Positions 1 through 43,570 of a stretch of DNA of 43,570 nt are shown piece after piece (positions within the stretch are counted from its first letter, which is position 1; each line of letters starts with the position of its first letter). This stretch comes from a virus. The notes under the pieces are model-generated. The model was not told where the DNA came from, searched no databases, and was given only the letters and a program-made list of their open reading frames with translations. The stretch lies in IMG/VR virus record IMGVR_UViG_3300013426_000010, positions 1-43,570 of that record. The stretch is one strand, 5' to 3'. The translations under genes were made by a program, and so were the position numbers.

Positions 1-207
1 TGCTCTAGCTTGAAGGAGATACCAGCTGGCTTGTTCGACAACTGCACTAAGGTAACTAGTTTATATTGTTGCTTCTATGGATGCTCTAGCTTGAAGGAGA
101 TACCAGCTGGCTTGTTCGACAACTGCACTAAGGTAACTAGTTTATATTGTTGCTTCTATGGATGCTCTAGCTTGAAGGAGATACCAGCTGGCTTGTTCGA
201 CAACTGC
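1..207 (+). repeat. Perfect 81-bp tandem repeat, 2.56 copies (1-81, 82-162, 163-207), identical to 43364..43570
   Basis: Direct reading: units 1-81 and 82-162 are identical base for base. The third unit diverges after nt 207 (gtttatgcg). The same 207 nt end the window. Each unit is 27 codons and in frame. Confidence 0.95.
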
Positions 208-618
208 GTTTATGCGAGTGATTTTCAGTATTGCTTCAAAGAATGCTCTAGTTTGCGTGAAATGCCGTACGACTTGTTTTACAAATGCCTTAATGCGAGT
301 GATTTTAAGTTTTGTTTCAGTGGTTGTAAGTTGTTAAAAGTTGGGTACATTCCTATTTGTTACGGTTATAAATCCAATTTAATATGGTACGCTTGTACTT
401 TTACAGATATTCGCATCCTTGTAGCTAATAGTGTGACCCCTGCAAGTATTTACAATAAAGATGATGAATTGCCAAATAGTATTGAAAAGATATACGTACC
501 CGATTCTGCAATCGACACCTACAAGACAGCAACAAACTGGAGCGCATTTGCTGACAAGATTGTTGGTTTCAGCGAGTTGACAGATGAGGAAAAGAAAAAG
601 TATGGCATAACCGCATAA
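1..618 (+). CDS. 3' end of the giant receptor-binding/tail-fibre gene (5'-partial in this window; continues from 38714..43570): BspA-type leucine-rich repeats plus C-terminal cap
   Basis: Frame 1 is open from nt 1 (CSSLKEIPAGLFDNCTKVTSLYCCFYG x2, then diverged units CSSLKEIPAGLFDNCVYASDFQYCFKE and CSSLREMPYDLFYKCLNASDFKFCFSG), with a stop at 616-618. The track start at 10 is only a TTG inside the repeat. The C-terminus IYVPDSAIDTYKTATNWSAFADKI is typical of BspA-like LRR_5 proteins. Confidence 0.8.
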   Translation, partial: CSSLKEIPAGLFDNCTKVTSLYCCFYGCSSLKEIPAGLFDNCTKVTSLYCCFYGCSSLKEIPAGLFDNCVYASDFQYCFKECSSLREMPYDLFYKCLNASDFKFCFSGCKLLKVGYIPICYGYKSNLIWYACTFTDIRILVANSVTPASIYNKDDELPNSIEKIYVPDSAIDTYKTATNWSAFADKIVGFSELTDEEKKKYGITA

Positions 619-29230: not shown

Positions 29231-32200
29231 ATGGCAACAACTGAGGAGCAGAAAATCCTCGACATCAAGGTAAGATACGAGGATGCCTTGTACGGAATCA
29301 TTCGCTACAAGGAAAAGATAGATGATTTGAAGGCTTCGCTCGCAACCTTGAAAGAGCAGGAGAAGGACGGCACCATAACAAGGAACGAGTACAAGGTGCA
29401 GACGGAAGCAATCAATGTTCAAATGACCCAGTACAAGGACACGATGCGAGTACTGAGGAAGGAGATGCAAAACAACTTGCGACAAGAGCAATTTCAAGAA
29501 GGCAGCTTGAAACAATTGCGTGCCGAGTTGTCCAACGCCACAAAGGCTTACGATGAGCTTTCCAAGGCTGAGAGAAATTCAGCCAAGGGCAAGGAGATGC
29601 AGGAGCACATCAACAAGATAACAAACGAGTTGAAACTAGCCGAGGAACAAACGCAAAGATACTACAGAAGCGTTGGAAGTTATTACAATTCCATGCTAGA
29701 CTTGGCAGAAGACCTTCAACACGTAACCCCTATGGGTGGAGGTGGTGGAGTTGGAGAGTTCACCAATAGCGTTGTAACACTTGGCAAAAATCTTGAAGGG
29801 CTGAAAGGCAAGGTTCTTGCATTTTCAAAGACCTTGCTAGGGTTGGCCGCAAATCCAGTGTTCCTTGCTTTGGCTGGCATCACTGGCGCAGGAATGGCGT
29901 TCAAGTGGTTCTATGACTACAACAAGGGATTGTTGGAAGCTACAAGATTAACCCGAGAGTTCACTGGCTACACTGGCGATGCGTTGGAGAGTTTGCGCAA
30001 TAGCATTTCCGCCACCGCTGACCTATACGGAAAGGACTTCAAGGAGGTTCTTTCAACCGTAGACGTACTGATGCAGCAATATGGCTATGATGGGGAAAAG
30101 TCGATGAAGATAATCAATGACGGTTTTTCTAGTGGCGCAGATTTGTCGGGCGAGATGCTTTCGATGATTCAACAATACGCACCTGCATTCAACGACGCTG
30201 GCATTGCTGGCGATGAGTTGGTTGCAATCATCCAACAGACCAGAAGCGGATTGTTCGGCAAGGATGGCATGGACGCAATAATGAAGGCTAGCAAGTCTTT
30301 GCGCAACATGAGTTCCACCACCGCAAGCGCGCTGGATGCCATCGGCGTTTCTTCCGACACTCTCAAAAAGAAACTGGAGAGTGGTCAGATAACCATGCTT
30401 GATGCAATTCAGCAAATTTCGGGTAAGTTGAAGGAACTTCCTGCAAACACGCAAGAGGTAGGAACGGTAATTGACAACGTTTTTGGAAAGAAGGGAACGG
30501 CGGCTGGTCAGAAGCAAATCCAGGCACTTGCAGACCTCGAGACCAGTTTGGATAAGGTCAAGGAGTCGGCGGGTGGATATGCAAAGATTCAGGAGGAAAA
30601 CCAAAAGCTACAACGCGAGTTGAACGACTATACCTCTATGTTCTTCGACCAGTCCCAGAACGGATTTGGCACAATCATTGCGCAAGGAAAGCAATTCGGC
30701 ACAAGGGTGCTCATTACCATCTTGAAGGGGTTGCAGTCTGCAATCAACTATTTCGTGGACTGGTACAATGATTCCCTTCTGCTACGAACCGCCATAAATT
30801 CAGTGGGAGTTCAGTTCAGAGTTTTGTGGGCTACCGTGAAGTTGGTTGTTAACCTTGTTATTGATGCGTTCAAGAAAATGGCTTTGCAAGCAAAGGGAAT
30901 GGCGGATATTCTTGAAGGCATCTTTACCTTTGACGTTGACAAGGCTAAACAAGGTTTTAAGGAAATGTTTGACGTTACTGGCATCTTGAAAGAAGCGTGG
31001 GGGGACTTGAAGAAGTTCGGCAAGGAATCTGCACAATCCGTAATAGATGGCTACAATGCAGTTATGGGAAGCGCTAAACTGGAGCACATCAACACTGCGT
31101 CCCCTTACAATGGTGGCACAGACGGTTCTAATAGCACAGGTGGGTCAACTCCTAGCAAAAATAAAAATAACGGTACAGACGGCAAATCTAGCAAAAATAA
31201 GACAAAAAAGGAGATAGATGCCGAGAAACTGGAAGCCGAGCGCAAGAAAAAGCAGGAGAGAAAACTTCAAGAGGACATTGCGCTCATTCAATACCAATAC
31301 AACGTGAAGGTAATGGATGCAAAGAAGATGTTTCTTGCTGGCATGTACGAAAAAGATAGGGACTACGACACGGAACTGGAATCCTTGGAGAAAGACATGA
31401 TAGCCCGAAGCCTTGATGCTTACGTTGCGGCTGGCAAGATTGGCGAGCAGAAGGCGCAGGAGATGCAAGGTAAATTGCTTGACATCATGATTAAGGCAAA
31501 GGAGCAACTAAAGCAGAATGCAAAGGAGACCATCGAGGACTTGAACAAGGAGTTCGAGAAGGGCGAGAAGCTACGGATCGAGACCGAGGTCAAAGGTGGC
31601 GGCACCGGTGAGGAATCTGATGATTCTCTGAAACTGCAACGTTACCAAGCCTTCTTGCAATCCAAGTTAGCATTATACCAGAACGATGCCGAGGTGCAAA
31701 AGCAATTGCAGCAAGAAATCCACGATAACGAAATTGCCCTGCAACAGGATGCAAAGAAAAAAGAAATAGAGGAAGAGGAAAAGAAAAAAGAAAAATTCAA
31801 GGCAATTTACCAACAGATTGCGGACGGATTGGCATCTGCCATGGATGAGATGTTTGAAGCCGAAACTGCCAAGGGAAAAGCGTTTCTTAAGAGTATGCTT
31901 ATAACAGCTCTTGATATGCTGAAACCATATATTCTTGCAGAATTGCAAGTCAAACAGATAGCATCAAAGGGTATTTGGGGAATCGCTGAAGCTGCCGTAT
32001 TGACTGGAATTGTAGAAGCAACGTTTGCAGGAGCGAAAGCTGCAATTAAGGGCTTTGCCACTGGTGGCTTGGTTGAGGGAGAGGGAACTGGCACGTCCGA
32101 TTCCATCCCCGCAAGGCTCAGCAATGGAGAGAGCGTAATGACCGCAAGGGCTACTTCCATGTTTAGCCCGATTCTGTCTGCATTCAATCAATTGGGCGGT

Positions 32201-32368
32201 GGTGTTCCTATCGTAGTTAACGGTGGAGGTTCCCAGATTGGCGAGGACATGTTGGCCGCTGCGGTAGCGAAAGGCATGATGATGGCACCGAGACCAATTG
32301 TCAGTGTCGAGGAAATCACTTCCAAACAATCAAGGGTTGAGACTATCGAGAGGATTGCAAGAATCTAG
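29231..32368 (+). CDS. Tail tape measure protein
   Basis: 1045 aa, largely coiled coil. The core block GKDFKEVLSTVDVLMQQYGYDGEKSMKIINDGFSSGADLSGEMLSMIQQYAPAFNDAGIAGDELVAIIQQ fits the TP901-type tape measure core. Hydrophobic Gly-rich segments lie near both ends. Confidence 0.8.
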   Translation: MATTEEQKILDIKVRYEDALYGIIRYKEKIDDLKASLATLKEQEKDGTITRNEYKVQTEAINVQMTQYKDTMRVLRKEMQNNLRQEQFQEGSLKQLRAELSNATKAYDELSKAERNSAKGKEMQEHINKITNELKLAEEQTQRYYRSVGSYYNSMLDLAEDLQHVTPMGGGGGVGEFTNSVVTLGKNLEGLKGKVLAFSKTLLGLAANPVFLALAGITGAGMAFKWFYDYNKGLLEATRLTREFTGYTGDALESLRNSISATADLYGKDFKEVLSTVDVLMQQYGYDGEKSMKIINDGFSSGADLSGEMLSMIQQYAPAFNDAGIAGDELVAIIQQTRSGLFGKDGMDAIMKASKSLRNMSSTTASALDAIGVSSDTLKKKLESGQITMLDAIQQISGKLKELPANTQEVGTVIDNVFGKKGTAAGQKQIQALADLETSLDKVKESAGGYAKIQEENQKLQRELNDYTSMFFDQSQNGFGTIIAQGKQFGTRVLITILKGLQSAINYFVDWYNDSLLLRTAINSVGVQFRVLWATVKLVVNLVIDAFKKMALQAKGMADILEGIFTFDVDKAKQGFKEMFDVTGILKEAWGDLKKFGKESAQSVIDGYNAVMGSAKLEHINTASPYNGGTDGSNSTGGSTPSKNKNNGTDGKSSKNKTKKEIDAEKLEAERKKKQERKLQEDIALIQYQYNVKVMDAKKMFLAGMYEKDRDYDTELESLEKDMIARSLDAYVAAGKIGEQKAQEMQGKLLDIMIKAKEQLKQNAKETIEDLNKEFEKGEKLRIETEVKGGGTGEESDDSLKLQRYQAFLQSKLALYQNDAEVQKQLQQEIHDNEIALQQDAKKKEIEEEEKKKEKFKAIYQQIADGLASAMDEMFEAETAKGKAFLKSMLITALDMLKPYILAELQVKQIASKGIWGIAEAAVLTGIVEATFAGAKAAIKGFATGGLVEGEGTGTSDSIPARLSNGESVMTARATSMFSPILSAFNQLGGGVPIVVNGGGSQIGEDMLAAAVAKGMMMAPRPIVSVEEITSKQSRVETIERIARI

Positions 32369-32379
32369 GAGGACAGTGC

Positions 32380-32613
32380 ATGAAGATATATGACCTATTA
32401 CGCATTTCCGAAAGTGTCTGCAAGATGCTGGACGTGAACAACATCAAGGCTAGCGATGTGCGATACCTCATGATGTTCAAGGACTGGGAACGGTTGAGGA
32501 AGGAAGGGCACAAGTACGATTTCATCATCCATTACCTCAGCACCCAGTATGAGATTTCTCCGTCTTCCGTTGAGCGAATAACGAGAAGGCTAAATCGTGA
32601 CGTAAAAATATAG
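32380..32613 (+). CDS. Small HTH protein, candidate late-gene activator (Mor/C-like)
   Basis: 77 aa. The C-terminal HYLSTQYEISPSSVERITRRL resembles a Mor/sigma-region-4-type HTH. It sits just before a terminator and the head-module promoter. Confidence 0.35.
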   Translation: MKIYDLLRISESVCKMLDVNNIKASDVRYLMMFKDWERLRKEGHKYDFIIHYLSTQYEISPSSVERITRRLNRDVKI

Positions 32614-32629
32614 TTATTTCTTTAAGATT

Positions 32630-32701
32630 TGCGCTCTGTGCGGTTCTTTTTATTGATTGATATAAGTTATCAATTAAGATGAAAGAGCGGTGCAGAGCGC
32701 A
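32630..32701. repeat. Nested imperfect inverted repeat (cruciform or hairpin)
   Basis: Outer arms TGCGCTCTG (32630-32638) and CAGAGCGCA (32693-32701). Inner arms TCTTT/AAAGA and TTGATA-taagt-TATCAA. Confidence 0.8.
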
Positions 32702-32713
32702 ATCTTTTCGGTT

Positions 32714-32740
32714 TTCCGTCAAATTTTGACGGAAGGTTTT
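32714..32740 (+). terminator. Rho-independent terminator after the tail module
   Basis: TTCCGTCAAA / TTTGACGGAA perfect stem followed by GGTTTT. Confidence 0.7.
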
Positions 32741-32774
32741 GAACACGTATTGAATAAACACACTTGATTTTTAT

Positions 32775-32782
32775 TATCTTTG
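32775..32782 (+). promoter_or_regulatory. -7 box TATCTTTG upstream of the head module
   Basis: Matches TAnnTTTG, 29 nt upstream of ATG 32811. Confidence 0.45.
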
Positions 32783-32810
32783 CACTCGGAAACCAAATAA
32801 AACGCAAGAT

Positions 32811-34100
32811 ATGGCATTACTCAAAATATACAATGACATCGTGACCGAGGACGATAAGTTTTGGTATTCTTGGTTTGGTGGCGATGGTGTCTGCTACAAG
32901 GACATTGATACGTTTGCTGCATCAATCCCGAAAGATGATGATACAATCGACATGCGGTTGTTCTGCAATGGTGGCAACGTGGTCGAGGGCTGGGCTATTT
33001 ATGACCGACTGAGACTGAGCGGTAAGAAAATTACCTGCACCATCGAGGGCAAGGCGTGTTCGATGGCTACCATCATCATGCTTGCCGCACCAAAGGAAGA
33101 CCGACACGCTTACGAGAATGCGGCTATCATGGTGCATAACCCTTGGATTCCCTGCTGGGCGCTTGGCGAGAAGGTTGGCGCAAAGGAACTGCAAAACTCA
33201 GCCGAGGAAATGAAGATGTGGCAGGATAAGATGGTTGACTTGTACGTTGAGCGTTGCGGCTGCGACCGTGGGGAGATTCAAGAACTCATGGACAAGGATA
33301 TTTTCATCAATGTTGACCGTGCTATCGAACTGGGATTGGTGGCTGACAAGTTAAGTCCGATTTCCGCAAGTGCAGGTGGAAGTAGTATTATTTCAAATAT
33401 TAATAAAAATCCAAAAGCAATGGCAAAGGGAAAAGAAACAAAAATCGAAGTTAAGGGTTCTTTGCTCAATCAGATTCTTGCAAAGCTAGGAATCAAGGCA
33501 GAGGGCGGCGATGGTGGCTCTGCCGAGGGTGGAGACGGTGGCGCAGAAGGCGCAAGCGAGGACGCTCAGAGCATGGAACTGGAGACCGAGGACGGTCAGA
33601 CCATTACCGTAGAACGTGAGGAAGGCGAGCCGCAGGTTGGCGACAAGGCTAGTCCCGATGGCACTTTCAAGATGCCAGACGGAAAGACCATCACCATCAA
33701 GGACGGAGAAATCACCGACATTCAGACTGAGAGCGATGGCGGAGAAGGTTCTTCCGAGGGTGGCAGTTCCGAGGGCTCGGCATCCGATGATGATGCAGTG
33801 GCAATGTTGCAGAAGCAGGTTGGCGACCTGACCGCCGAGCGTGACGACTTGAAGGCAAAGTTGGAGAAGGCGGAAGCCAACGCAAAGACCAAGGAAGAGC
33901 GCAGAATCTTGAATGCCGTCAAGATGGCTGGAGGTGCCGACAAGGTTCTTGGAAATATTTCAAGCAACTATCAGCCAGAGCAGCGCAAGCCTAGTGGCAA
34001 GAACGCTAGCGAGAAGGCTGATGCCCAGGCACGCATTGACGCAGGCGCAAAGGCAATACTCGCCAACTTGAACGGCGGCAACAAGCCCGAGGGTAAGTAA
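32811..34100 (+). CDS. Prohead protease of the ClpP/S14 family fused to an acidic scaffold-like C-terminal region
   Basis: IDMRLFCNGGNVVEGWAIYDRLRLSGKKITCTIEGKACSMATIIMLAA...IMVHNPW are the ClpP-family Ser/His blocks. The C-terminal half is G/E/D/S-rich followed by a coiled coil. Confidence 0.8.
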   Translation: MALLKIYNDIVTEDDKFWYSWFGGDGVCYKDIDTFAASIPKDDDTIDMRLFCNGGNVVEGWAIYDRLRLSGKKITCTIEGKACSMATIIMLAAPKEDRHAYENAAIMVHNPWIPCWALGEKVGAKELQNSAEEMKMWQDKMVDLYVERCGCDRGEIQELMDKDIFINVDRAIELGLVADKLSPISASAGGSSIISNINKNPKAMAKGKETKIEVKGSLLNQILAKLGIKAEGGDGGSAEGGDGGAEGASEDAQSMELETEDGQTITVEREEGEPQVGDKASPDGTFKMPDGKTITIKDGEITDIQTESDGGEGSSEGGSSEGSASDDDAVAMLQKQVGDLTAERDDLKAKLEKAEANAKTKEERRILNAVKMAGGADKVLGNISSNYQPEQRKPSGKNASEKADAQARIDAGAKAILANLNGGNKPEGK

Positions 34101-34131
34101 CAAGCATTTTAATCAAACTAGTATTTAAGTT

Positions 34132-35199
34132 ATGGCAAAATTCGACAAGAAATTATTTGAGAGTTTCAAGCTAGAGCCAGAGAACGTTGAGTCCATCAAG
34201 ACGGCTATCAATCTGACCGCCTACACAAAGCAAGACCTAGCTCAGTTCGTCACTCTTACCAAGGTGGAGGAAAATGAGCCAGTTGCATTCCTCGGTAGCA
34301 TGGAGGACGTAGGCAAGTCTGGAAGCGGTTGCGACCCTACCTATGAGGAGAAGGGTATCGCTAACTCGATGAAGCGCTGGAAACTCGGCGACTGGCAGAT
34401 TCCGCTGAAAATCTGCTATGAATCCATGTTCGGCACAATCTCCGAGTATGCCTTGAAGAAGGGCACGGACATTGCAGACCTTGACGGTACGGACATTATG
34501 ACCATCTACACACAGAAGTTACAGGAAGCTATCACTTCCATGCGCTGGCGTATGGTTTGGCTCGGAGATACCGCGGCGCAGAACGTAACCGATGGTGGCA
34601 AGATTACCGATAACGTCAGCACTGACCTTTTCGATACTTGCGATGGTCTTTGGAAGCGAATCTTCGCTATCTGTCAGAGTTCAAGCAAGCAACTGACCGC
34701 CATCGATGCCAACAAGAAAACCACACCTGCAGAGCAGCGTGCTGCGGCTCTCGCTGATGGCTACATGACCGGATTGGTCGACCAGATGCTGATGGACGTG
34801 GATTCCCGAATCCTCGATGATAAGGATTCCGTGCTGGTAATGACCCGTTCCATGGCGATGGCTTTCGAGTATGACCTTAAGGAGCAATATAAGATTATCC
34901 TTCCATGGGAGAAGGTGGAGAACGGCATGAACACGACCATGTACAACGGCATCAAGATTGCTCGTTGCTCTGTATGGGACCGCCAGTTATCCGCTTACGA
35001 GAAGGGTTCGGCAACGGTGAACCTTCCTTATCGTGCATTGTTCGTGAACAAAAAGCAGCTCATGGCTGGAAGTCCAGACAACTTTATGAGCCAGCTTGAC
35101 GTTTGGTTCGACAAGAAGGAGCGCAGAAACTACATTTATGCCACTGGCAAGATGGGAACCCAGACCTTGGAGGATGATATGATTCACGCAATGTACTAA
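34132..35199 (+). CDS. Major capsid protein (inferred)
   Basis: 355 aa, directly downstream of the prohead protease, which is the usual HK97-type arrangement. No motif-level proof. Confidence 0.6.
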   Translation: MAKFDKKLFESFKLEPENVESIKTAINLTAYTKQDLAQFVTLTKVEENEPVAFLGSMEDVGKSGSGCDPTYEEKGIANSMKRWKLGDWQIPLKICYESMFGTISEYALKKGTDIADLDGTDIMTIYTQKLQEAITSMRWRMVWLGDTAAQNVTDGGKITDNVSTDLFDTCDGLWKRIFAICQSSSKQLTAIDANKKTTPAEQRAAALADGYMTGLVDQMLMDVDSRILDDKDSVLVMTRSMAMAFEYDLKEQYKIILPWEKVENGMNTTMYNGIKIARCSVWDRQLSAYEKGSATVNLPYRALFVNKKQLMAGSPDNFMSQLDVWFDKKERRNYIYATGKMGTQTLEDDMIHAMY

Positions 35200-35281
35200 T
35201 CGTTCCAAGTCTTCAACTATTCCTCGCCACTCATTCAAGGGTGGTGAGGATATTGTTTAACAACACAAAAATCTTATAATT

Positions 35282-35881
35282 ATGGCAGTTACAACATGTG
35301 AGAGCCTTATTTCGCAGGATATTGCAGTTGCTTGCGCAGACCAAGTTACTAAGGGTTTGGAGAGTGACGGCATCATCATCAACCGAGGAGACATCGATTT
35401 TTCGAAGACCGTATTCGACGAAGATAATCCTTGCATCATCAAGCAGCTTGTTTTGAAGAAGGGCAAGAAAGCGTATGCAATCCGTCAAGATGGAAACACT
35501 CCGTTCACTGGCACCAAGACCGAGTTGAATGTGGGTACTTATCGCAACACTTGGAACAGCGAGGTCGCTATCATTGTTTTGGCTAACACACCAGATGTGT
35601 GTGCTAACATCGTGGACGGACTTGCGAACGGTAAGTATGTGGTTATCCTTCGCAATATTTCGAAGGGCGCAGACGGAAAGGGCGAGTTCCAGGTTTACGG
35701 CTATGCGCAGGGCTTGAAGGCAAGCGCAGGAACAAATGAGAAATATTCCGATGATACCGAGGGCGGCTGGCTCATTACCTTGCAAGAGGAGAAGGCACCG
35801 AAGGCGGCTTATTTCCTGTTCAACACAGACACCGAGACAACAACGGCAGCTTACGAGGCTCTTTTGACTTCAGGCGAGTGA
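35282..35881 (+). CDS. Structural protein, 199 aa (major tail or head-decoration candidate)
   Basis: Assigned by position and beta-rich composition only. Confidence 0.4.
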   Translation: MAVTTCESLISQDIAVACADQVTKGLESDGIIINRGDIDFSKTVFDEDNPCIIKQLVLKKGKKAYAIRQDGNTPFTGTKTELNVGTYRNTWNSEVAIIVLANTPDVCANIVDGLANGKYVVILRNISKGADGKGEFQVYGYAQGLKASAGTNEKYSDDTEGGWLITLQEEKAPKAAYFLFNTDTETTTAAYEALLTSGE

Positions 35882-35979
35882 ACTTGTATTAATCAAGGGT
35901 ACTGGCTAAACTCTTATGGTTGGAAAAACTCCGATGCTTGGAGAGACCAGCCGATTTACAACTTTTAAATTCGTGAGTT

Positions 35980-36507
35980 ATGACATATTCAGAAGCAAAG
36001 GAAGCGGTCGAGAAGTTGCAAGGCAAGATGGACGCATCTTTCTCGAACGCAGACAAGAAAAAAATCGAGGAACTTTACTTTGAGGTCCTTCGCAAGACTT
36101 TTGTACATACATCGTGCCAGCAGTGTTACCATGATGCGGTTATTGAGATGCTTGTATACATGCGCAAGTATCGCAAACTTAAGACAAAGTGCAATTACCG
36201 CATGCGTGCTGGCTTCATTATTTCGTGCCCAGACTTCTATGCTGGTAAGATTTTCACCAACGACAACCTTACAGACAAGGTCGCAAAGGAGTACTTGGAG
36301 AAATACCCGAAGCAGGAAAGTATGTTCTCTGAGATTCCCGAGGAGGAGTTAATCGAAAATAAGGAAAATTCGGATGGCACTCCTGCCACTGGTGGGGATG
36401 GGGATTCTTCGGATCATGATGATTCGGAAGGAAAGAGCGATGATTCCGACCCCGACAAGGGCGATAAAGCGCCTTCCAACGGCGGCAACGATGATGAGGA
36501 TGAGTAA
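35980..36507 (+). CDS. Hypothetical protein with strongly acidic low-complexity C-terminus
   Basis: 175 aa. The tail reads GGDGDSSDHDDSEGKSDDSDPDKGDKAPSNGGNDDEDE. Confidence 0.5.
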   Translation: MTYSEAKEAVEKLQGKMDASFSNADKKKIEELYFEVLRKTFVHTSCQQCYHDAVIEMLVYMRKYRKLKTKCNYRMRAGFIISCPDFYAGKIFTNDNLTDKVAKEYLEKYPKQESMFSEIPEEELIENKENSDGTPATGGDGDSSDHDDSEGKSDDSDPDKGDKAPSNGGNDDEDE

Positions 36508-36535
36508 TTAATCAATCTTATGGAGATACTGGCAC

Positions 36536-37723
36536 ATGAACGTTAAGACTACGAAGAAACCGAAACCACGCATTGACATTGGCTATGTTAGTCGATTCAA
36601 GATGCAGGCTTACGGAAACAACAATCTTTATCCGCAGAATATTTCTGCGATAGCCAAGGCGAGCGGCACCGCTGAACTTTGCATCGACCGCTATGCTAAG
36701 TTTATCGAGGGGTACGGATTCAACTCTGAGCAACTATCTGAGACCATCGTCAACCGCCATGACCGCACGGCTGACGACTTGTTGCATGATGTTGCCGCAG
36801 ACATAGCCCGATACGGTGGTTTTGCCCTTCACGTCAACTATAATGTTCTTTGTCAGATTACCGAGGTTAATTTTGTTCCGTTCGAGAATTGCAGACTAGG
36901 GGAAGAGGACGAAAGGGGACGTGTCGAGGAAATATTGGTGCATCCCGACTGGACGCAGAAGAAAACCCGAAACGGTCAATATCTGAGGGTTGACGAGCAG
37001 ACGGTTAAGCGCATAAAGGTTTTCAACCCCGACCCTGCGATTGTCGAGCGTGAGATTGAGGAAGCTGGCGGCATCGAGTTCTACAAAGGGCAGATTGCTT
37101 GGTGTTCCATGGATGGAGCCCAGACGTACCCGACCCCGATTTATGATTCCGTTATAACTGAGATTTCCACGGACGAGGGACTAGGGAACGTAAAATATCG
37201 CAACGTGAGAAATAACTTCTTGGTTGCTTGTATGCTCATTTACAAGAAGGGCGTTCCAAAGTATAACCCAGAGACAGACGAGGAGGTTGACGATGGTTCA
37301 ATGATTTCCGATGAGGACTTGAAGCAATTCCAGGGGGACGAGAATACATCTAAAATTCTTGCCGTTGAACTGGAGAATGACGAGGACAAACCCGAGGTGG
37401 TTGCCTTTCCTACAAAGAACTACGACAAGGAGTTTACGGTTACAGACGCAAGTGTCGTGGAACGCATCTATGCCCAGTTTCATCAAGAACTTTTCTATGC
37501 AATCCGCATGGGTAAGTTGGGCTTCAGTGGGCAGGTAATGCGTGATGCTTACGAATACTATGCTGGCGAGGTTACAAACGAGCAACGTTTCATTCAACGC
37601 ATCATGGAAAAGATTTTCGAGCACTGGCACGACCCTTCGTTGGCATCCATGGATTTCACCCTGCAACCATTGAAGTATATCAGTAGCGAGAATGTTGACA
37701 ACAATTCAATCGAGAATGAATAA
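36536..37723 (+). CDS. Portal protein candidate
   Basis: 395 aa, the only head-module ORF of portal-like size. LLHDVAADIARYGGFALHVNY resembles a portal conserved block. Its position after the capsid gene is atypical. Confidence 0.45.
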   Translation: MNVKTTKKPKPRIDIGYVSRFKMQAYGNNNLYPQNISAIAKASGTAELCIDRYAKFIEGYGFNSEQLSETIVNRHDRTADDLLHDVAADIARYGGFALHVNYNVLCQITEVNFVPFENCRLGEEDERGRVEEILVHPDWTQKKTRNGQYLRVDEQTVKRIKVFNPDPAIVEREIEEAGGIEFYKGQIAWCSMDGAQTYPTPIYDSVITEISTDEGLGNVKYRNVRNNFLVACMLIYKKGVPKYNPETDEEVDDGSMISDEDLKQFQGDENTSKILAVELENDEDKPEVVAFPTKNYDKEFTVTDASVVERIYAQFHQELFYAIRMGKLGFSGQVMRDAYEYYAGEVTNEQRFIQRIMEKIFEHWHDPSLASMDFTLQPLKYISSENVDNNSIENE

Positions 37724-38286
37724 TGAAGCAAGTAGACAGAATACCATTGATTACGGTTGAGCAGTTCAGAACACTTGCAAGACCAACGAGTGCACACCTT
37801 GACGAGGGCGATGTGCTTAGCTTTGTTCGTGAGTGCGAGGATGAGAAAATCATCCCAGCAATAGGTTGGGCTAACTTCAAGTCTTCCATCGGGCTGAGAG
37901 AATGGGATAGCACATTCGACACTTCTTTCATTCCCGATTTGTTCCTTGATGGCGGCGAGTGGTCTAGGGAGGAAGTCGATGAGCACGGAGACAAATACGA
38001 CAAGTTGTATTTCTGCAATGGGGTGCGCAAGGCACTTGCATATTTTGCGTATGCGAAGATATTGCGTGCCGATGGTACAATTATAGCCCGAGCAGGTTCA
38101 ATGCGTCACAGAGACGATTATTCAGACCATATCGAGGAACCTCAGCTAAGGCAGTACAATGACGTAATGAACATGGCTGAACGTTATTTGGCTGAATGCC
38201 TTCAATATCTGAAAGTACATAAAAAAAGCAGGCAGATTTCCCCAGTTCGTGGAACTAGGGCTAGAGTGCATGCAATAGGAGACTAA
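37723..38286 (+). CDS. Head-tail connector/adaptor-like protein (gp6-like)
   Basis: ITVEQFRTLARPTSAHLDEGDVLSFVRECEDEKIIPAIG fits the N-terminal pattern of gp6-like head-tail connectors. The start shares one nt with the upstream stop. Confidence 0.4.
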   Translation: MKQVDRIPLITVEQFRTLARPTSAHLDEGDVLSFVRECEDEKIIPAIGWANFKSSIGLREWDSTFDTSFIPDLFLDGGEWSREEVDEHGDKYDKLYFCNGVRKALAYFAYAKILRADGTIIARAGSMRHRDDYSDHIEEPQLRQYNDVMNMAERYLAECLQYLKVHKKSRQISPVRGTRARVHAIGD

Positions 38287-38291: not shown

Positions 38292-38519
38292 ATGGCAGAG
38301 AGCACAAAGACGATTTCCCAGTTGCGTGAGGTGGCTCAGAAGGTTAAGAACGAAACCGAGGTGGGCGGCAACACTGCCGTTCGTGTCGGTGGGCTTTTCG
38401 AGGACATTGTGAACCATATAGGCGAACACGAAGATAAGTTGGCTATTCTTGGAGAAAGTGAGTACAATACGATAACCAAGAACCCTAACAAGATTTATTT
38501 CGTCTACGAGGACGAGTAA
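38292..38519 (+). CDS. Hypothetical small protein
   Basis: 75-aa ORF preceding the RBP gene. Confidence 0.45.
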   Translation: MAESTKTISQLREVAQKVKNETEVGGNTAVRVGGLFEDIVNHIGEHEDKLAILGESEYNTITKNPNKIYFVYEDE

Positions 38520-38525: not shown

Positions 38526-38699
38526 ATGATTAGTGCAGAGGGAAAGCAAATTGCGATAATTCATGCCGGTGGTAAGGTTATCGCCGCCGTGTACCATGGG
38601 GCACGGCTTATATGGCAAGCGGTCCGTTCTTGTTTCGGGAGCGGACGCTGGATAAATGAAAAACCATGGCTAAATGCAGAAGCATGGAAAAATAACTAA
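38526..38699 (+). CDS. 57-aa Trp-rich small protein (below the ORF-track cutoff)
   Basis: My translation: MISAEGKQIAIIHAGGKVIAAVYHGARLIWQAVRSCFGSGRWINEKPWLNAEAWKNN. The stop is 14 nt before the RBP ATG. Confidence 0.4.
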   Translation: MISAEGKQIAIIHAGGKVIAAVYHGARLIWQAVRSCFGSGRWINEKPWLNAEAWKNN

Positions 38700-38713: not shown

Positions 38714-41700
38714 ATGACAAAAGTTTATGACGGAAAGATTGACCTCAGCACAGATTGGGGTGGAGATTCCAGCACTGGCAATCTACCAGTTGCTGGCGGT
38801 CGTGTGCAGGAACTAATCAAGAGCACATTCGCAAAGAAAGGCGGATATGTGCAAGTGAAAGACAAGAAGTTTCTGCAAATCTTTGCAGATGAAGCGTCAG
38901 CAAAGAAATACAATTCAGATAGTGATAAATATGCGGACTTGCTTATCTCGCAAGTTCAGCTTCCTAACACTGGAGCAACGCAAGCCACGATGAAGGTAAG
39001 CGTTCTTTCCATTCCTTCCGAGTATTCCACCAAGGGACGTTCGGAAGTATTCTCATTTCGGTACAATTCGTACTATGAAAACGAGGAGGATTTCTCGCAG
39101 GTTAGCGGATCATGTGTTGTATATGTTAACAACGTTCAGCGTGAGCGCATTTCCTTGCGTGCTGGTAACACCTACACCATCGATGTTAGCAAATATCTGA
39201 CTGATGGCACGAACGAGGTTAAGTTTACCATTGACAATGCCGAGCAGAGCAAGCGTAATTACGTGTACGAGGTTCAAATGGTGAACTTGAAGGTTGTATC
39301 TGACTTTGACTATATCGCCGCATACAACGGAGATATTCCATTTACATACACACCTATCGGCAACATATTGAAAACCGTACATATCGTGATGGATGGCGAG
39401 GAAATCCATTCCGAGGAGACTGAGGTCAATAATCGCCAGTTGTCTTTCGAGATTCCTGCGCAATCCCACGGTGCCCATACGCTGGAGGTATATTTGACCG
39501 CAACAATCCAAGACATCGCACTGGAGAGCGAGCGTCTTAAGTATTCTGTTATCTGCATCGAGGAGGGTAACGAAACCCCTATCATCGCAAGTAACATGGA
39601 AAGGGTGGAGATGAATCAGTACGAATCCGTAAATATACCTTTCGTGGTCTATGCCCCTTTGAATAATCCTGCGGAAATCACTCTGAGAATAAACAAAAGC
39701 GTGGTTGCAACACGCCAAGTTGACCGCACGCAACAGACATGGATTTACAAGGCTTTGGAGGTTGGCGGCGGCATGATGGAAATCAAGTGCCGTGACGTAT
39801 CGAAATCTTTGCCTTTGACCGTTAACGAATCAATCATCACTTCCAAGGCTGAAACACAGAATCTTGAATTGTTCCTAACATCGCAGGGAAGAAGTAACCA
39901 AGATGCCAACAAGGAGACATGGGAAAACAACGGCATCAAAGTAGCCTTCGAAGGAATGAACTATACGACAAACGGCTGGGTTGTTGATTCTGACGGCAAT
40001 ACTGCAATGCGTCTAAGTGGTGGTGCGACCATGGAGATACCTTTGCTGTTGTTCTCCAAGGACATTCGACAGACGGGAAAGACCATCGAGCTAGAGTTTG
40101 CGGTAAGGCAGGTTACTGATTATACAAGCGTGGTTCTTTCATGCTTGCAAGGCGGCATTGGCTTGGAACTGACCCCGAACACCATCATGCTAACGAGCGA
40201 GCAGTCTTCCATGGAAACCAAGTACAAGGAGGACGAGCGTGTCCGTGTGTCTTTCGTGATTGAGAAGAGAGCCAACAATCGACTGATGCAGATTTACATC
40301 AATGGAATTAAGTCTCAATCCGTCCAATATCCAGACAACGATGGATTCATGCAGGCTTCGCCAGTTGGCATCACTGCGAACTCTGATGCCGCTACGCTTG
40401 ACATCTACAACATTCGTGTATACTCAAATAACTTGAAGTCTCAGCAGCTTCTAGACAACTATATTGCGGACTTGGATGACATCGAGAAGAAGATGGCTAT
40501 ATTCAAGCGCAACCAAGTTTATGATACCTACGGAAACCTTAGCTACAACGCATTGCTGGAGCAGATTCCGTGCCTTACCATCACTGGCGAGTTATCCCAG
40601 TACAAGGGCGACAAGAAGACCGTGAGCATCGAGTATGTAGACAAGAATCATCCCGATAAGAGTTTTACGGCTGATGGTGTCGTTCTGAATGTGCAAGGTA
40701 CGTCTTCGCAGTATTACCCACGAAAGAACTACAAAGGGCAATTTAAGAAAGGCTTCGACATGACAGAGAGCGGTCAGCATGAGGATGCTTTTACGTTGGA
40801 CGAGGATGCTGTTTTGCCTGCCGTTAACTTCTGCTGGAAGGCTGATTTTGCGGAATCTAGCGGAACGCACAACACTGGCTTGGCTAACTATATTGGGTGG
40901 ATGCTGAAACAAGCTGGCATCTTGACAGAGCCACAAAAGAAGAACGCTTTGATACGTACCACGGTGTACGGAGAGCCTTGCTTGATTTTCCATCGTGCGA
41001 GCGCAGGGGAGACACCTCAATTTATCGGCAAGTACAATTTCAACACAGACAAGAGTGCCGAGAACACTTTTGGCTTTGCCGATGGGGATGAATCATGGGA
41101 GTTCTCTAACAATACTAGCGACCGTTCTTTGTTCCGTTCTGCGGACTTCGATGGGGATGCTTGGAAGAATGACTTCGAGGGACGTTATCCTGATGGCAAC
41201 GAGGATATTTCGCACATGAAGGAAGTATTCGCATGGGTGGTTTCTTGCAAGGATGATTTGGAAAAGTTCAAGAATGAATTCGATGAGCACTTCGATAAGA
41301 AAACGCTCATTTTCTACTATCTGATTACATTGGTTTTCGGAATGGTTGACCAGAGAGCGAAAAACCAGTTCCTTACTTACTACAGTGGCGGCAAGTGGCT
41401 TTTCATTTTCTACGATAATGATACCGTTTTCGGCATCAACAACGAGGGTGCAATCGAGTTTAGCTATAATATCGAGATACATGATGTTATCGGTAACTTG
41501 AATGCCTACAACGGAGCGAATTCCCTTCTTTGGGAATTGGTGGAGCAAGCGTTTGCGGGCGATATTAAATCCTTGTATCAAGATTTGCGTCAAAAGGGCA
41601 TCTTAAGCTACGACAACGTGATTAAGTACTGCAACACACGTCAAAGTGACAAGTGGTGCGAAGCGGTTTATAACGAGGATGGTTACTATAAGTACGAATC

Positions 41701-43570
41701 CCCTTTGATTGATGGATATACCGATTACTCCAGTGGCACGGCTCAGACCGTGAAGACTGGTGCGTTTCTCTATGCCCTTCAAGGTAGTCGAGACGCACAT
41801 CGCCGTTGGTGGCTTTACAACCGCTTCAAGTATATGGATTCCAAGTTCCAAGCTGGTTCTTCTTTGTCTGATTACATAACGTTTCGTACCTATACCCCTG
41901 CGGAATGGTCGGGGGTTGAGCCAAAGGCAGACATTACAATCGGTTCCCTTGCCGCCATGTATGGTACAATCAAATGGGGAAGTATCACCAAGAGCGAAAG
42001 AATGAGCGAGGGAGAGGTTAAGACCATCACTGCGCCTACGGACACGAAGTTTAACGACACCGAGACCATCATCTACAATGCTTCAATGATTAAGAGCATT
42101 GGCGATTTGTCGGCTCTGTATGTGGGTACCGTGGACGTGTCAAAGGCTACGAACATAACTGAGTTAATCATCGGTTCATCGGTCAGCGGCTACAAGAACC
42201 AGAATTTTAGCGTTCTTTCCCTTGGTAACAATGCCAAGTTGTGCAAGCTGGATATTCAGAATTGCCCGAACTATACCGCTAGTATTGATGTGAGCGGTTG
42301 CGAGAACATCGAGGAGGTTTATGCGAGGGGTACTGGTGCAACCGCCGTTAACCTTGCAGAGGGTGGCGTGTTGCGTGTCTTGCAACTTCCTGCGAGCATC
42401 ACGAACCTTACATTGAAGAACCAGCCGAAACTCGGAACTGGCTTAACTTTGGAATCATGGGCGAACGTGGTTGCGTTGGTTATTGAGAATTGCCCAAACA
42501 TCAATGCTTTTGCAAGGGTTAAAACTATTCTTGCAGATACGAATGCGCTTCAACGTGTCCGAATCACCAACGTAAAGGCGAATGAAAGCAACTTTGCAAT
42601 ATTGGAGCAACTTAAGAATCTTAAGGGAATCGGCGACAATGGCGAGTATACCGACTTTGCCTATATTAGTGGTACATATAACATTGCGGAGGCTGGAGAG
42701 AGCGACATCGAGGAATATACAAAGCTATTCCCTTACCTTAAGATAGTGGCAGGAAAAGTCTTGAAGATGCACACGGTTACTTTCGTTGTTAAGTCTCAGT
42801 ATGGCAATATCAAGGGTGCTACCGTAACTATCAACGGTTCAACATATAGCCTATCAAGTGGTACGGCTAGCGTTAAGTTGTTGGAAGGCAAAAGCTACAG
42901 TTATACTATTAATTACGATGGCAAGACTGATAGCGGAAGCGTCTCAGTTGGTTCTTCTGATGTAACTATCAATAAGACATACACGGTATCTTTCGATGCC
43001 ATGAGCATGAAGCCAGAGCCGAATGGAAAGATTCAATTCCTGCTTGGTGGTAAGAATGTTAGTTTCGGCATCACTGGAGGATACACCGATTTGAGTATTG
43101 ACTGGGGGGATGATTCGGCATCCATTGATGGTGATGAATTTAGCCACACTTATGCGGACGGAGAGCAATTTCATAATGTTTCCGTGCAAGTCACTGGAGG
43201 AACAAAAATATATTTTGACAATCAATGTATCTATGCGTTTTGGAGTATTGGAAATAATGAGAATATAGTTCCAGATTTTGAAACTCAAGGCAAATTACAA
43301 TACGTTGGTCTTGATGCGTTGAAGAATTTTACTGGCACTTCATTAAAAAATGAATTCTACAATTGCTCTAGCTTGAAGGAGATACCAGCTGGCTTGTTCG
43401 ACAACTGCACTAAGGTAACTAGTTTATATTGTTGCTTCTATGGATGCTCTAGCTTGAAGGAGATACCAGCTGGCTTGTTCGACAACTGCACTAAGGTAAC
43501 TAGTTTATATTGTTGCTTCTATGGATGCTCTAGCTTGAAGGAGATACCAGCTGGCTTGTTCGACAACTGC
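38714..43570 (+). CDS. Giant receptor-binding/tail-fibre protein, 3'-partial in the window (continues at 1..618; about 1755 aa if the 207-nt overlap is collapsed): LamG-like, CotH-like, LRR, Ig/PKD-like and BspA-LRR segments
   Basis: I translated from ATG 38714 by eye and met no stop up to 43570 (4857 nt, exactly 1619 codons). The ORF is absent from the supplied track, apparently because it has no in-window stop. Motifs are listed in the findings. Confidence 0.85.
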   Translation, partial: MTKVYDGKIDLSTDWGGDSSTGNLPVAGGRVQELIKSTFAKKGGYVQVKDKKFLQIFADEASAKKYNSDSDKYADLLISQVQLPNTGATQATMKVSVLSIPSEYSTKGRSEVFSFRYNSYYENEEDFSQVSGSCVVYVNNVQRERISLRAGNTYTIDVSKYLTDGTNEVKFTIDNAEQSKRNYVYEVQMVNLKVVSDFDYIAAYNGDIPFTYTPIGNILKTVHIVMDGEEIHSEETEVNNRQLSFEIPAQSHGAHTLEVYLTATIQDIALESERLKYSVICIEEGNETPIIASNMERVEMNQYESVNIPFVVYAPLNNPAEITLRINKSVVATRQVDRTQQTWIYKALEVGGGMMEIKCRDVSKSLPLTVNESIITSKAETQNLELFLTSQGRSNQDANKETWENNGIKVAFEGMNYTTNGWVVDSDGNTAMRLSGGATMEIPLLLFSKDIRQTGKTIELEFAVRQVTDYTSVVLSCLQGGIGLELTPNTIMLTSEQSSMETKYKEDERVRVSFVIEKRANNRLMQIYINGIKSQSVQYPDNDGFMQASPVGITANSDAATLDIYNIRVYSNNLKSQQLLDNYIADLDDIEKKMAIFKRNQVYDTYGNLSYNALLEQIPCLTITGELSQYKGDKKTVSIEYVDKNHPDKSFTADGVVLNVQGTSSQYYPRKNYKGQFKKGFDMTESGQHEDAFTLDEDAVLPAVNFCWKADFAESSGTHNTGLANYIGWMLKQAGILTEPQKKNALIRTTVYGEPCLIFHRASAGETPQFIGKYNFNTDKSAENTFGFADGDESWEFSNNTSDRSLFRSADFDGDAWKNDFEGRYPDGNEDISHMKEVFAWVVSCKDDLEKFKNEFDEHFDKKTLIFYYLITLVFGMVDQRAKNQFLTYYSGGKWLFIFYDNDTVFGINNEGAIEFSYNIEIHDVIGNLNAYNGANSLLWELVEQAFAGDIKSLYQDLRQKGILSYDNVIKYCNTRQSDKWCEAVYNEDGYYKYESPLIDGYTDYSSGTAQTVKTGAFLYALQGSRDAHRRWWLYNRFKYMDSKFQAGSSLSDYITFRTYTPAEWSGVEPKADITIGSLAAMYGTIKWGSITKSERMSEGEVKTITAPTDTKFNDTETIIYNASMIKSIGDLSALYVGTVDVSKATNITELIIGSSVSGYKNQNFSVLSLGNNAKLCKLDIQNCPNYTASIDVSGCENIEEVYARGTGATAVNLAEGGVLRVLQLPASITNLTLKNQPKLGTGLTLESWANVVALVIENCPNINAFARVKTILADTNALQRVRITNVKANESNFAILEQLKNLKGIGDNGEYTDFAYISGTYNIAEAGESDIEEYTKLFPYLKIVAGKVLKMHTVTFVVKSQYGNIKGATVTINGSTYSLSSGTASVKLLEGKSYSYTINYDGKTDSGSVSVGSSDVTINKTYTVSFDAMSMKPEPNGKIQFLLGGKNVSFGITGGYTDLSIDWGDDSASIDGDEFSHTYADGEQFHNVSVQVTGGTKIYFDNQCIYAFWSIGNNENIVPDFETQGKLQYVGLDALKNFTGTSLKNEFYNCSSLKEIPAGLFDNCTKVTSLYCCFYGCSSLKEIPAGLFDNCTKVTSLYCCFYGCSSLKEIPAGLFDNC
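43364..43570 (+). repeat. Perfect 81-bp tandem repeat (43364-43444, 43445-43525, 43526-43570), identical to 1..207
   Basis: Direct comparison of both window ends. Confidence 0.95.

Follow-up and report, generated by a model that had tools for sequence, protein, structure and literature searches.

A giant modular gene of a Segatella copri prophage lineage, probably encoding a tail fibre or adhesin with a CotH kinase-like core

Introduction

Few phages have been characterised for Segatella (Prevotella) copri, a dominant species of the gut whose clinical role is debated. The stretch of viral DNA analysed here, referred to as the window (43,570 nucleotides, the whole of IMG/VR record IMGVR_UViG_3300013426_000010), raises a question about one of them. 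In the last part of the window the list of open reading frames shows no large gene, and yet an earlier note, made from the letters alone, had placed there the largest gene of all and had taken its product for a receptor-binding protein of unusual composition. There are three points to settle: (i) whether such a gene exists, (ii) which modules its product is built of, and (iii) what the product might do for the phage. The largest gene of the window is real, and its 1,755-residue product is a probable tail fibre or adhesin of a Segatella copri prophage.

Results

One reading frame across the ends of the contig

From an ATG at 38714, which has an in-frame stop upstream, the frame is free of stop codons to the last letter of the window (43570) and is taken up again in frame 1 at the window start, where it runs to a TAA at 616-618. 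The last 207 nt of the window (43364-43570) are identical to positions 1-207. Joining 38714..43363 with 1..618 yields a single ORF of 1,755 codons and one stop, just as the earlier note had read it. The gene is absent from the ORF list, as had also been remarked, because the circular contig was opened within it and the lister omits ORFs that run off either end; in the public record the gene call covers no more than 148 aa of it, at the start of the contig (P0121, 100% identical). Relatives carry the gene intact. A 91% identical protein of 1,725 aa (P0001) is encoded without interruption inside a 50-kb contig, with the same neighbours, and the gene is uninterrupted in two complete Segatella copri chromosomes, the ORF in that of HDE04 being 1,761 aa long (L002 10001-15286). 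The parts of the gene and its small upstream neighbours are listed in Table 1.

Table 1. Positions in the window of the giant gene, its predicted modules and the adjoining small ORFs
Feature	Position	Strand	Basis
Giant gene, first part (aa 1-1550)	38714..43363	+	Stop-free frame from ATG 38714
Giant gene, second part (aa 1551-1755 and TAA 616-618)	1..618	+	43364-43570 duplicates 1-207; contiguity from P0001/L012 and L002
Lineage-specific N-terminal region (aa 1 to ~90), presumed virion attachment	38714..38983	+	Distant relatives align only from ~aa 87-153
Three Ig-like beta-sandwich domains (aa 92-371)	38987..39826	+	AF2 secondary structure, pLDDT 83-94
Beta jelly-roll, ConA/LamG-like lectin fold (aa 384-570)	39863..40423	+	All-beta model, pLDDT >90
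CotH kinase-like alpha/beta domain (aa 600-1051)	40511..41866	+	Pfam CotH above cutoff on segment
Putative active site: catalytic loop D879-Q-R-A-K-N884; metal-binding Y900-D901-N-D903	41348..41422	+	Invariance and alignment to CotH
First LRR solenoid (aa ~1130-1340), in conserved core	42101..42733	+	AF2 model 2: short regular strands, pLDDT ~90
Two small beta-sandwich modules (aa 1342-1423, CarboxypepD_reg/Big-like; aa 1440-1511, PKD-like DWGD...HTY motif)	42737..43246	+	AF2 model 2; small beta-sandwich Foldseek matches
Hypervariable distal BspA-type LRR domain (aa 1519-1755)	43268..43363, continues 1-615	+	LRR_5, 4fd0 profile, Foldseek
Perfect 81-nt tandem array, 2.56 copies, 27-aa LRR units	1..207	+	Also the contig terminal overlap; copy number uncertain
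Conserved 75-aa ORF upstream	38292..38519	+	N-terminus resembles tail-fibre PHROG (phrog_38537, E 1.7e-5); kept in L012 and L002
Conserved 57-aa ORF directly upstream (…SCFGSGRWINEKPWLNAEAWKNN)	38526..38699	+	Protein-level conservation in L012 and L002

A predicted chain of globular modules

The two AF2 models are confident overall (pLDDT 87.3 and 88.7), with low confidence in the N-terminal region at aa 1-33 and 84-89, and the protein that they predict would be a chain of globular modules. Such an architecture is unlike that of classical trimeric fibres and to that extent counts against a fibre. A Pfam scan of the whole protein returned nothing significant, CotH included; CotH and LRR_5 were recovered only by scans of isolated segments.

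The three Ig-like domains find their Foldseek matches among alpha2-macroglobulin/complement MG repeats, SGBP-B and S-layer Ig arrays. The jelly-roll that follows them is matched by the lectin-like domains of BoNT/NTNH, the lectin module of PilC and viral ‘LamG-like jellyroll’/ConA-like proteins, in matches for which the aligned query residues are not reported. A LamG/ConA lectin had been proposed for ~39860-40470, and it finds support in the predicted fold. The Laminin_G_3 profile (PF13385), by which the earlier note had itself proposed to judge this segment, does not bear it out: there is no match to the window's own segment at E up to 10, and the profile appears in only two of ten diverse relatives, below threshold, at 15.0 and 18.7 bits where the cutoff is 27.6.

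Further along the chain, the AF2 model and Foldseek agree with the earlier reading of two kinds of leucine-rich repeat and of beta-sandwich modules. The first LRR solenoid is matched by Nogo-receptor-type LRRs. The Ig-like and PKD-like modules claimed for ~42760-43210 are present as beta-sandwiches in the model; the Pfam matches of aa 1342-1511 (Cadherin-like, Big_3_5, CBM_4_9 and CarboxypepD_reg) are all sub-threshold, and the PKD profile has no match to the window sequence at E up to 10, so that only a DWGD…HTY-type motif and the modelled beta-sandwich recall that family. The distal domain, described as BspA-type LRR_5 from ~43290, is confirmed in its fold: the best PDB matches of the C-terminal model in Foldseek are 4fd0 (2.6e-5) and 4fdw (5.6e-4), and the family profile matches 4fd0 at E 6.7e-5 in an alignment that extends through the C-terminal cap ‘IYVPD…YK.A.NW’. 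In Pfam the window sequence falls just under the cutoff for LRR_5 (PF13306; 23.8 against 27.7 bits, E 4.5e-5), and in precomputed annotation many relatives are labelled PF13306 or PF03382.

A CotH-like domain with an invariant putative active site

The CotH-like domain that had been read at ~40560-41850 is recovered when the segment aa 600-1060 is scanned in isolation: PF08757 reaches 29.9 bits, above its cutoff of 23.8 (E 5.3e-7), at aa 825-973, in a match that spans profile positions 135-277 of 322, the C-lobe half only. The same label is precomputed on about half of 120 listed relatives, and structural neighbours from viruses bear the annotations ‘Spore coat protein H kinase fold’ and ‘CotH kinase protein’. 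HMMER searches of the PDB, one with the whole-family profile and one with a CotH-only profile, did not reach 5JD9, and when the 1,130-residue model was searched for similar folds in the PDB, the top 50 matches were all to Ig-repeat or lectin structures, which mask any match to CotH.

For residue mapping, the family was aligned against the deposited B. cereus sequence together with a sequence taken to be that of B. subtilis CotH, used solely as a probe (362 aa, with Asp at 228 and 251, matching 5JD9 at E 1e-137). The catalytic residues, which the earlier note had singled out as the point to inspect, are conserved: D879/N884 and D901/D903 are invariant across 61 relatives and align with D228/N233 and D251/D253 of B. 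subtilis CotH, at a weak hhalign score (E 0.04-0.05). The activity of CotH requires D228 and D251 (PMC7821199). The enzymatic activity that had been suggested for the protein is plausible because these residues are invariant, and the domain may be catalytically active.

It is also quite possible, if not the reading preferred here, that the domain has no catalytic function and acts as a scaffold or binds a ligand, as has been put forward for the CotH invasins of Mucorales, with its conserved residues serving folding or ligand binding and not phosphotransfer. Little ATP is available outside the cell, where virions operate; the solved CotH kinase is reached by no sequence profile; and the Pfam match is confined to one half of the profile, all of which would suit such a module. 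Against it, the equivalents of D228 and D251, the accompanying Asn and many other charged residues are invariant in relatives down to ~40% identity, as would be expected of purifying selection on an active site, and an enzyme could do its work in the cytoplasm during assembly. For a kinase on an extracellular fibre there is no obvious supply of ATP, an observation that counts against the fibre explanation taken as a whole.

Genome context and likely role

The window carries integrase, terminase, protease, portal and tape-measure-like genes of a phage. At genome level its nearest relatives are prophages of S. copri (79-80% identity), and a megablast search with 23 kb of the window found no close relative among phage records. 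The giant gene is the last large late gene ahead of the endolysin, which lies ~3 kb downstream, and a scan 3' of its stop codon found no terminator. It comes after the portal gene (36536-37723) and a DUF6712 protein, not after tail-tip genes or the tape-measure-like gene, a location that counts against a tail fibre. Of the two small conserved ORFs upstream (Table 1), the 57-aa one has no family match, and its product is possibly a fibre accessory protein.

In two other phages the homologue is encoded at the tail-tip position. That of Hankyphage is placed after the tape measure, the baseplate hub and a minor tail protein and is treated as a tail fibre (PMC12135933); that of phage NatCom_3357 follows the tape measure, Dit and an 800-aa protein and precedes the holin and endolysin. 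Because the homologues occupy this position in both phages, and the ‘tail fiber’ of Hankyphage is diversified by a DGR, the tail-fibre or receptor-binding role put forward in the earlier note appears, by analogy, to be the best reading. The gene is likely to encode the long distal tail fibre or adhesin of a temperate, tailed S. copri phage of ~43.4 kb, modular and with a variable LRR end. The lineage-specific N-terminus would dock to the virion of this phage. The conserved core (aa ~130-1340), common to the DGR target of Hankyphage, would supply the Ig-like spacers, the ConA/LamG-like jelly-roll, the CotH domain with its invariant putative active site and the first LRR, and the distal BspA-type LRR domain, beyond the two small beta-sandwiches, would most likely contact a receptor on the host surface.

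A decoration or accessory adhesin, conferring a Hoc-like adherence to mucus or glycans that concentrates the phage on mucus or polysaccharide-coated cells, would have the same Ig-like repeats and lectin-like jelly-roll and could well be encoded beside the head genes, as the giant gene is; mucus adherence has been proposed for the Hankyphage homologue by Benler et al. (PMC6199706). That the protein is such an adhesin, and not the primary receptor-binding protein, is nonetheless unlikely given the tail-tip position of the homologues in two other phage backbones, the BppU_N baseplate-anchor domain carried by one relative (P0103) and the location of the hypervariable part, which is the distal end and the DGR target in relatives, a pattern typical of tropism determinants. 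Far less probable still is lysogenic conversion, in which the prophage would express a surface adhesin of bacterial type that is absent from the virion: surface proteins of Bacteroidales typically contain BspA-type LRR and Ig-like modules (4fd0, 4fdw), but the N-terminus (MTKVYDGKIDLSTDWGGD…), read directly from the sequence, has no obvious signal peptide or lipobox, the gene sits in the late structural operon between portal and lysis genes, and the nearest relatives of the C-terminal module are found in phage genomes.

Variation at the distal end

Among 36 close relatives, identity per 50 aa is 0.69-0.99 over aa 1-1250, only 0.32-0.43 over aa 1451-1700, and higher again in the final 55 aa; the 27-aa LRR units number from 0 to 8 copies among close relatives. 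By this identity profile and these unit counts, the conserved proximal and variable distal pattern of the fibre class is present. The giant gene is the likeliest host-range determinant of one S. copri prophage lineage. In Hankyphage-type relatives a retroelement diversifies a distal C-type lectin, and in the S. copri phage lineage the end that confers specificity may instead be diversified by exchange of C-terminal modules together with gain and loss of 27-aa LRR units.

Other sources of variation were considered and set aside. A DGR at the locus was rejected: tblastn found neither a reverse transcriptase (RT) nor Avd in the window, no YxDD motif occurs in its ORFs of >250 aa, and the locus has no template repeat or C-type lectin end. 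An invertible or alternative C-terminal cassette of the Mu/P1 type was rejected as well, there being no inverted repeats of at least 14 nt. No distant direct repeats of at least 16 nt were found near the 3' end of the gene. The idea that the protein was built from host surface-protein modules fares no better for the C-terminal module, which is nearest to phage-encoded proteins and whose likeness to Bacteroides BspA is one of fold, at ~15% identity; its recent capture from host surface proteins is unsupported, both long-contig relatives examined lying in large phage genomes.

The repeat units also bear on the junction of the contig. The 207 nt by which the contig ends overlap correspond exactly to 2.56 perfect copies of the 81-nt (27-codon) tandem unit, an array in which TRF finds 100% matches (1-207); units 1 and 2 are identical at 81/81 positions, unit 3 at 65/81 and unit 4 at 51/81. 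As the contig breaks inside this perfect array, the exact number of units is uncertain, and exact searches of viral contigs for the repeat-entry and unit-unit junctions gave no match; the reading frame is kept whatever the number of units. The overlap with the array and the missing junction matches would fit an artefact (false circularisation through the tandem repeat, or a pseudogene), but this is scarcely credible, since contig interiors and complete chromosomes hold orthologues that are uninterrupted and agree in their N- and C-terminal parts and in their flanking genes, the contig passes from the integrase into early genes as a circular form predicts, and the doubt is confined to the copy number of the units.

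Discussion

The giant protein joins a large, already described family of giant proteins of gut phages, built around a CotH kinase-like core. The combination of domains, which the earlier note had called unusual, is in fact well documented: giant phage proteins (>2,000 aa) with CotH, Laminin_G_3 or carbohydrate-binding domains and LRR were described in 2014, 2017, 2021 and 2024 (PMC4159848, PMC5758913, PMC8008677, bioRxiv 10.1101/2024.11.15.621889), and at least 1,253 protein clusters contain the LamG-CotH core. The family is among the largest groups of giant gut-phage structural proteins and extends over phages of Bacteroidota and Bacillota, crAss-like phages and Bacillus phage G. What is distinctive here is the distal end, in which a hypervariable BspA-type LRR replaces the DGR and C-type lectin.

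On the reading of the protein as a tail fibre with a catalytic CotH domain, a bolder and rather doubtful proposal can be made. The CotH fold would be an active virion-borne phosphotransferase, whether as a kinase whose targets during assembly are virion or host proteins or as an enzyme modifying or cleaving a phosphorylated polymer of the host envelope at adsorption, and lineages that have no DGR, such as the present one, would retune their host range by gaining and losing 27-aa LRR units. If true, this would be an enzymatic activity so far not known from tail fibres and conserved over >1,000 gut-phage lineages. A DGR-less member whose LRR end varies naturally, in cultured S. copri (HDE04, NZ_CP152346, 1.91 Mb region; G8, NZ_CP146523), offers a simple system for both the role of CotH and specificity independent of a retroelement.

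Comparison with known systems

The Bacillus spore-coat kinase CotH (PF08757; PDB 5JD9/5JDA) is the solved counterpart of the central domain. The segment has the Pfam match and equivalents of the catalytic Asp and Asn and of the metal-binding Asp; unlike Bacillus CotH, it is a domain of ~450 aa within a 1,755-aa phage structural protein, its similarity to 5JD9 lies beyond the reach of HMMER, and substrates like CotB or CotG are not evident. The Bacteroides BspA-type proteins (4fd0, BACCAC_03700; 4fdw, BACOVA_01565; LRR_5) are the best structural matches of the C-terminal model, although identity is ~15%, LRR_5 stays just below its cutoff and the closest sequence relatives of the module are encoded by phages. 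By profile and predicted structure the same core is found in PHROGs 14959 and 24896, in gp353 of Bacillus phage G and in the crAss-like proteins cr52_1 (‘internalin-like’) and cr124_1 (‘spore coat protein-like’), whose N-terminal anchors and distal modules differ from those of the giant protein.

A further comparison is with Hankyphage (Bacteroides phage p00), whose DGR variable protein or ‘tail fiber’ was placed in category f1 by Wu et al. 2017 and in ‘domain group 3’ by the 2024 survey of Bacteroides DGRs. In BLASTP, aa 153-1344 of the giant protein align with this DGR target over 1,308 columns, with 28% identity and an E of 1e-122. Both are giant proteins of the late operon of a temperate Bacteroidales phage, and they have in common the Ig-like domains, the predicted lectin-like jelly-roll, a CotH-like domain whose catalytic motifs agree and the first LRR block. 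The backbones differ, being of integrase type here and Mu-like transposable in Hankyphage, and so do both ends of the protein: the N-terminal ~150 aa are unrelated to the Hankyphage protein, which has ~400 extra N-terminal residues, and nothing in the window matches the last 565 aa of the latter (best E 0.47). Unlike Hankyphage, the window has no C-type lectin/DUF1566 end, variable or template repeat, reverse transcriptase or Avd; in their place, the distal end of the S. copri phage protein consists of two beta-sandwiches and a BspA-type LRR.

The giant gene and its join

From an ATG at 38714, a reading frame runs stop-free for 1,619 codons to the window end. The first 207 nt of the window are identical to its last 207 nt (43364-43570), and the same protein continues in frame 1 from the window start to a TAA at 616-618. 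Joining 38714..43363 with 1..618 gives a 1,755-aa protein with one stop, at its end. The gene had gone unlisted because the circular contig was opened inside it: the ORF lister omits ORFs running off either window end, and the public record's gene call (P0121) covers just 148 aa, a fragment where the 43,570-bp JGI contig begins. The join is confirmed independently by two unbroken orthologues. P0001 (1,725 aa, 91% identical) is an internal gene of a 50-kb contig and has the same neighbours there, and the complete Segatella copri HDE04 chromosome carries a 1,761-aa orthologue with the same flanking gene order. The wrap-around gene proposed in the earlier note is thus borne out, and with these orthologues an assembly artefact is scarcely credible.

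The direct terminal repeat and a perfect tandem array occupy exactly the same stretch: an 81-nt unit, repeated 2.56 times without mismatch, makes up the whole overlap. Since the contig breaks within this array, the unit copy number is not secure, and the length of 1,755 aa is therefore unreliable; the frame is kept at any copy number because 81 nt is 27 codons. Exact junction searches of viral contigs found no match, and hence gave no fix on the copy number. The overlap-based circularity call is sound here because prophage synteny confirms it.

Phage genome and late gene order

At about 43.4 kb, the window spans the entire genome of a temperate phage, whose closest genomic relatives are prophages in S. 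copri chromosomes (79-80% identity); more distant ones occur in Bacteroides genomes and several Clostridia.

Genes of the phage (nucleotide positions) and predicted domains of the giant protein (aa)
Feature	Position	Strand	Source or remark
Integrase	7210-8382	minus	
RecE-like exonuclease, DnaD-like replication protein, ParB/methyltransferase	in window		
Large terminase	23046-24221		391-aa ORF
1,045-aa protein	29231-32368		C-terminus tape-measure-like
Head protease	32811-34100		
Probable capsid protein	34132-35199		
Portal	36536-37723		
DUF6712 protein	37723-38286		then two small conserved ORFs, then giant gene
Endolysin	3713-4348		about 3 kb downstream of giant gene
N-terminus, poorly predicted	aa 1 to about 90		AlphaFold2
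Three Ig-like beta-sandwiches	aa 92-371		AlphaFold2
All-beta jelly-roll (a helical linker follows)	aa 384-570		AlphaFold2
Large alpha/beta domain (CotH; a beta module follows)	aa 600-1051		AlphaFold2
First LRR solenoid	aa about 1130-1340		AlphaFold2
Two small beta-sandwiches	aa 1342-1423, 1440-1511		AlphaFold2
Second LRR solenoid with helical cap	aa 1519-1755		AlphaFold2

The late genes follow an unusual order over 23046-38286: terminase, unknown and tape-measure-like proteins (25764-32368), protease, capsid, portal and DUF6712 protein. Because of this order, the putative fibre gene stands behind the portal and not behind tail-tip genes. A conserved 75-aa ORF (38292-38519, plus strand) matches the N-terminus of PHROG 38537, 'tail fiber protein', over its first ~40 residues (E 1.7e-5), and by eye has a G-N-x-x-V-x-x-G-x-x-x-E-x-I-like motif in common with the giant protein's N-terminus. 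Directly upstream of the giant gene, a 57-aa ORF (38526-38699, plus strand) ends in a W-rich repeat (…SCFGSGRWINEKPWLNAEAWKNN) and overlaps an 18-nt tandem repeat (38649-38693). It is conserved at the protein level in the contig locus of P0001 and in the HDE04 prophage, has no Pfam or PHROG match, and may serve the fibre as an accessory or chaperone protein.

Directly 5' of the large terminase, a 205-aa ORF (22367-22984, plus strand) matches PHROG 'Rnase E' (E 6e-16) and may be a small terminase or, if the terminase is split, its N-terminal part. Just 3' of the terminase, two overlapping ORFs with no assigned function (24797-25234 and 25212-25760, plus strand) have an arrangement reminiscent of a tail-chaperone frameshift pair. 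Inside the DnaD-like replication-initiation gene (14854-15912), the hexamer TGATAG is repeated perfectly 6.7 times (15195-15234); these could be iteron-like origin repeats within an initiator gene.

Domain architecture

Two AlphaFold2 models of the giant protein, built on family alignments, are both confident (aa 1-1130: mean pLDDT 87.3, pTM 0.76; aa 1120-1755: mean pLDDT 88.7). The all-beta domain and its Foldseek matches (BoNT/NTNH lectin-like domains, a PilC lectin module and viral LamG-like jellyroll proteins) are consistent with a ConA/LamG-type lectin, an assignment at fold level only because the Foldseek output lacks aligned query residues. The LamG claim of the earlier note thus agrees with the predicted fold but has no backing from the profile search: Pfam Laminin_G_3 has no match in the window's own sequence, and matches two of ten diverse relatives, both sub-threshold (E 0.002 and 0.029). 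Of the claimed PKD-like modules, one small beta-sandwich with a PKD-like motif is left; the window protein has no Pfam PKD match.

The CotH domain and its kinase-like site

A whole-protein Pfam scan returned no match, whereas the isolated CotH segment scores 29.9 bits against a curated cutoff of 23.8 (E 5e-7), which upholds the CotH assignment. A precomputed PF08757 label is carried by about half of the 120 relatives listed, and viral structural neighbours are labelled "Spore coat protein H kinase fold", "CotH kinase protein" and "Spore coat protein-like". The PDB fold search with the long model gave a list filled by Ig-repeat and lectin matches.

The B. subtilis CotH sequence, checked by its length, Asp at 228 and 251 and a match at E 1e-137, served as PDB probe to obtain the deposited B. 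cereus CotH (5JD9), which HMMER profiles did not reach. Profile-profile alignment to CotH pairs D879/N884 with D228/N233 and D901/D903 with D251/D253; the score is weak (E about 0.04), the register exact, and a permissive alignment is co-linear across the whole domain. V-D879-Q-R-A-K-N884 and Y900-D901-N-D903 are invariant in a 61-member alignment with identity down to about 40%, so the suggested check on catalytic residues found their equivalents in place. D228 and D251 are needed for B. subtilis CotH activity (PMC7821199). The invariant equivalents argue for an active enzyme; a non-catalytic module is a tentative alternative, by no means a far-fetched one.

The distal LRR end

The family profile aligns with the Bacteroides BspA-type protein 4fd0 (E 6.7e-5) through the terminal IYVPD…YK.A.NW cap, and structure comparison of the C-terminal model ranks 4fd0 and 4fdw highest. 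Fold and cap thus agree with the BspA-type LRR_5 repeats that had been named, but the Pfam LRR_5 score of the C-terminus lies just under the cutoff.

Compared with 36 close relatives, the window protein shows an identity of 0.69-0.99 over aa 1-1250; the value drops to 0.32-0.43 for aa 1451-1700 and rises again in the final 55 residues. The C..L..IP.GLF unit occurs 0 to 8 times among close relatives. Two window units are identical at 81/81 nt, a third at 65/81 and a fourth at 51/81; this pattern points to recent duplication or assembly ambiguity.

Neither a reverse transcriptase nor Avd is encoded in the window, and its long ORFs all lack an RT motif. A C-type-lectin end is likewise absent (best tblastn E 0.47), and around the 3′ end of the giant gene there are neither inverted repeats nor distant direct ones. 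A diversity-generating retroelement (DGR) or inversion system was therefore rejected as diversifier of the window protein.

In sequence, the C-terminal module is closest to short LRR proteins. Two contigs of about 170-196 kb (ERZ16268165 scaffold_15 and ERZ16268095 scaffold_200), which look like large phage genomes (dUTPase, NrdD, Tad2-like, Phage_tail_fib), encode ~300-aa LRR_5/DUF285 proteins 50% identical to it, which suggests that the module moves among jumbo-type gut phages as a gene in its own right. Because both long-contig relatives examined belong to large phage genomes, recent capture from host surface proteins is unsupported.

Proposed role

The giant protein is probably a tail fibre or adhesin. 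Its virion presence and receptor binding are suggested by gene position and by homology to the Hankyphage (Bacteroides phage p00) "tail fiber", a label that is annotation and not demonstrated function (PMC12135933). An accessory or decoration adhesin is unlikely, and a surface protein of the lysogen would be very surprising. As a tail fibre, the protein would be anchored to the virion by its lineage-specific N-terminus, and the conserved core would supply reach, a glycan-binding lectin and a CotH-fold enzyme acting either in the cytoplasm during assembly or at the host envelope. The hypervariable BspA-type LRR would make specific contact with the S. copri surface, its specificity evolving via module exchange and unit gain or loss. 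The earlier note was right about the gene and only in part about its meaning.

Comparison with known systems

The combination of CotH, lectin and LRR had been called unusual; the architecture is already published. CotH is among the DGR target domains of human microbiomes (PMC4159848), and DGR targets of about 2,000 aa have weak CotH and Laminin_G_3 motifs (PMC5758913). Searched exhaustively against 1.84 billion cluster representatives, the LamG-CotH core occurs in 1,253 clusters with a cutoff of E ≤ 1e-30 and in 3,229 when this is relaxed to E ≤ 1e-3, and almost all are 1,500-2,900-aa proteins; PHROGs 14959 and 24896 (labelled "unknown function") cover this core, and tblastn finds homologues of the central region in 39 phage records. 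The giant gene adds a member to this known family, in which a distal LRR end with no DGR is a common variant.

In Hankyphage the homologue is a DGR target of roughly 2,245 aa whose C-terminus bears the variable repeat; tape measure, baseplate hub and minor tail protein immediately precede it. This target is homologous to the window protein over aa 153 to 1344 (28% identity, E 1e-122), through the Ig-like domains, jelly-roll, CotH and first LRR block, and homology ends where the distal modules start. In phage NatCom_3357, which has another backbone, the tape measure, Dit and an 800-aa protein come before the homologue, the holin and endolysin after it.
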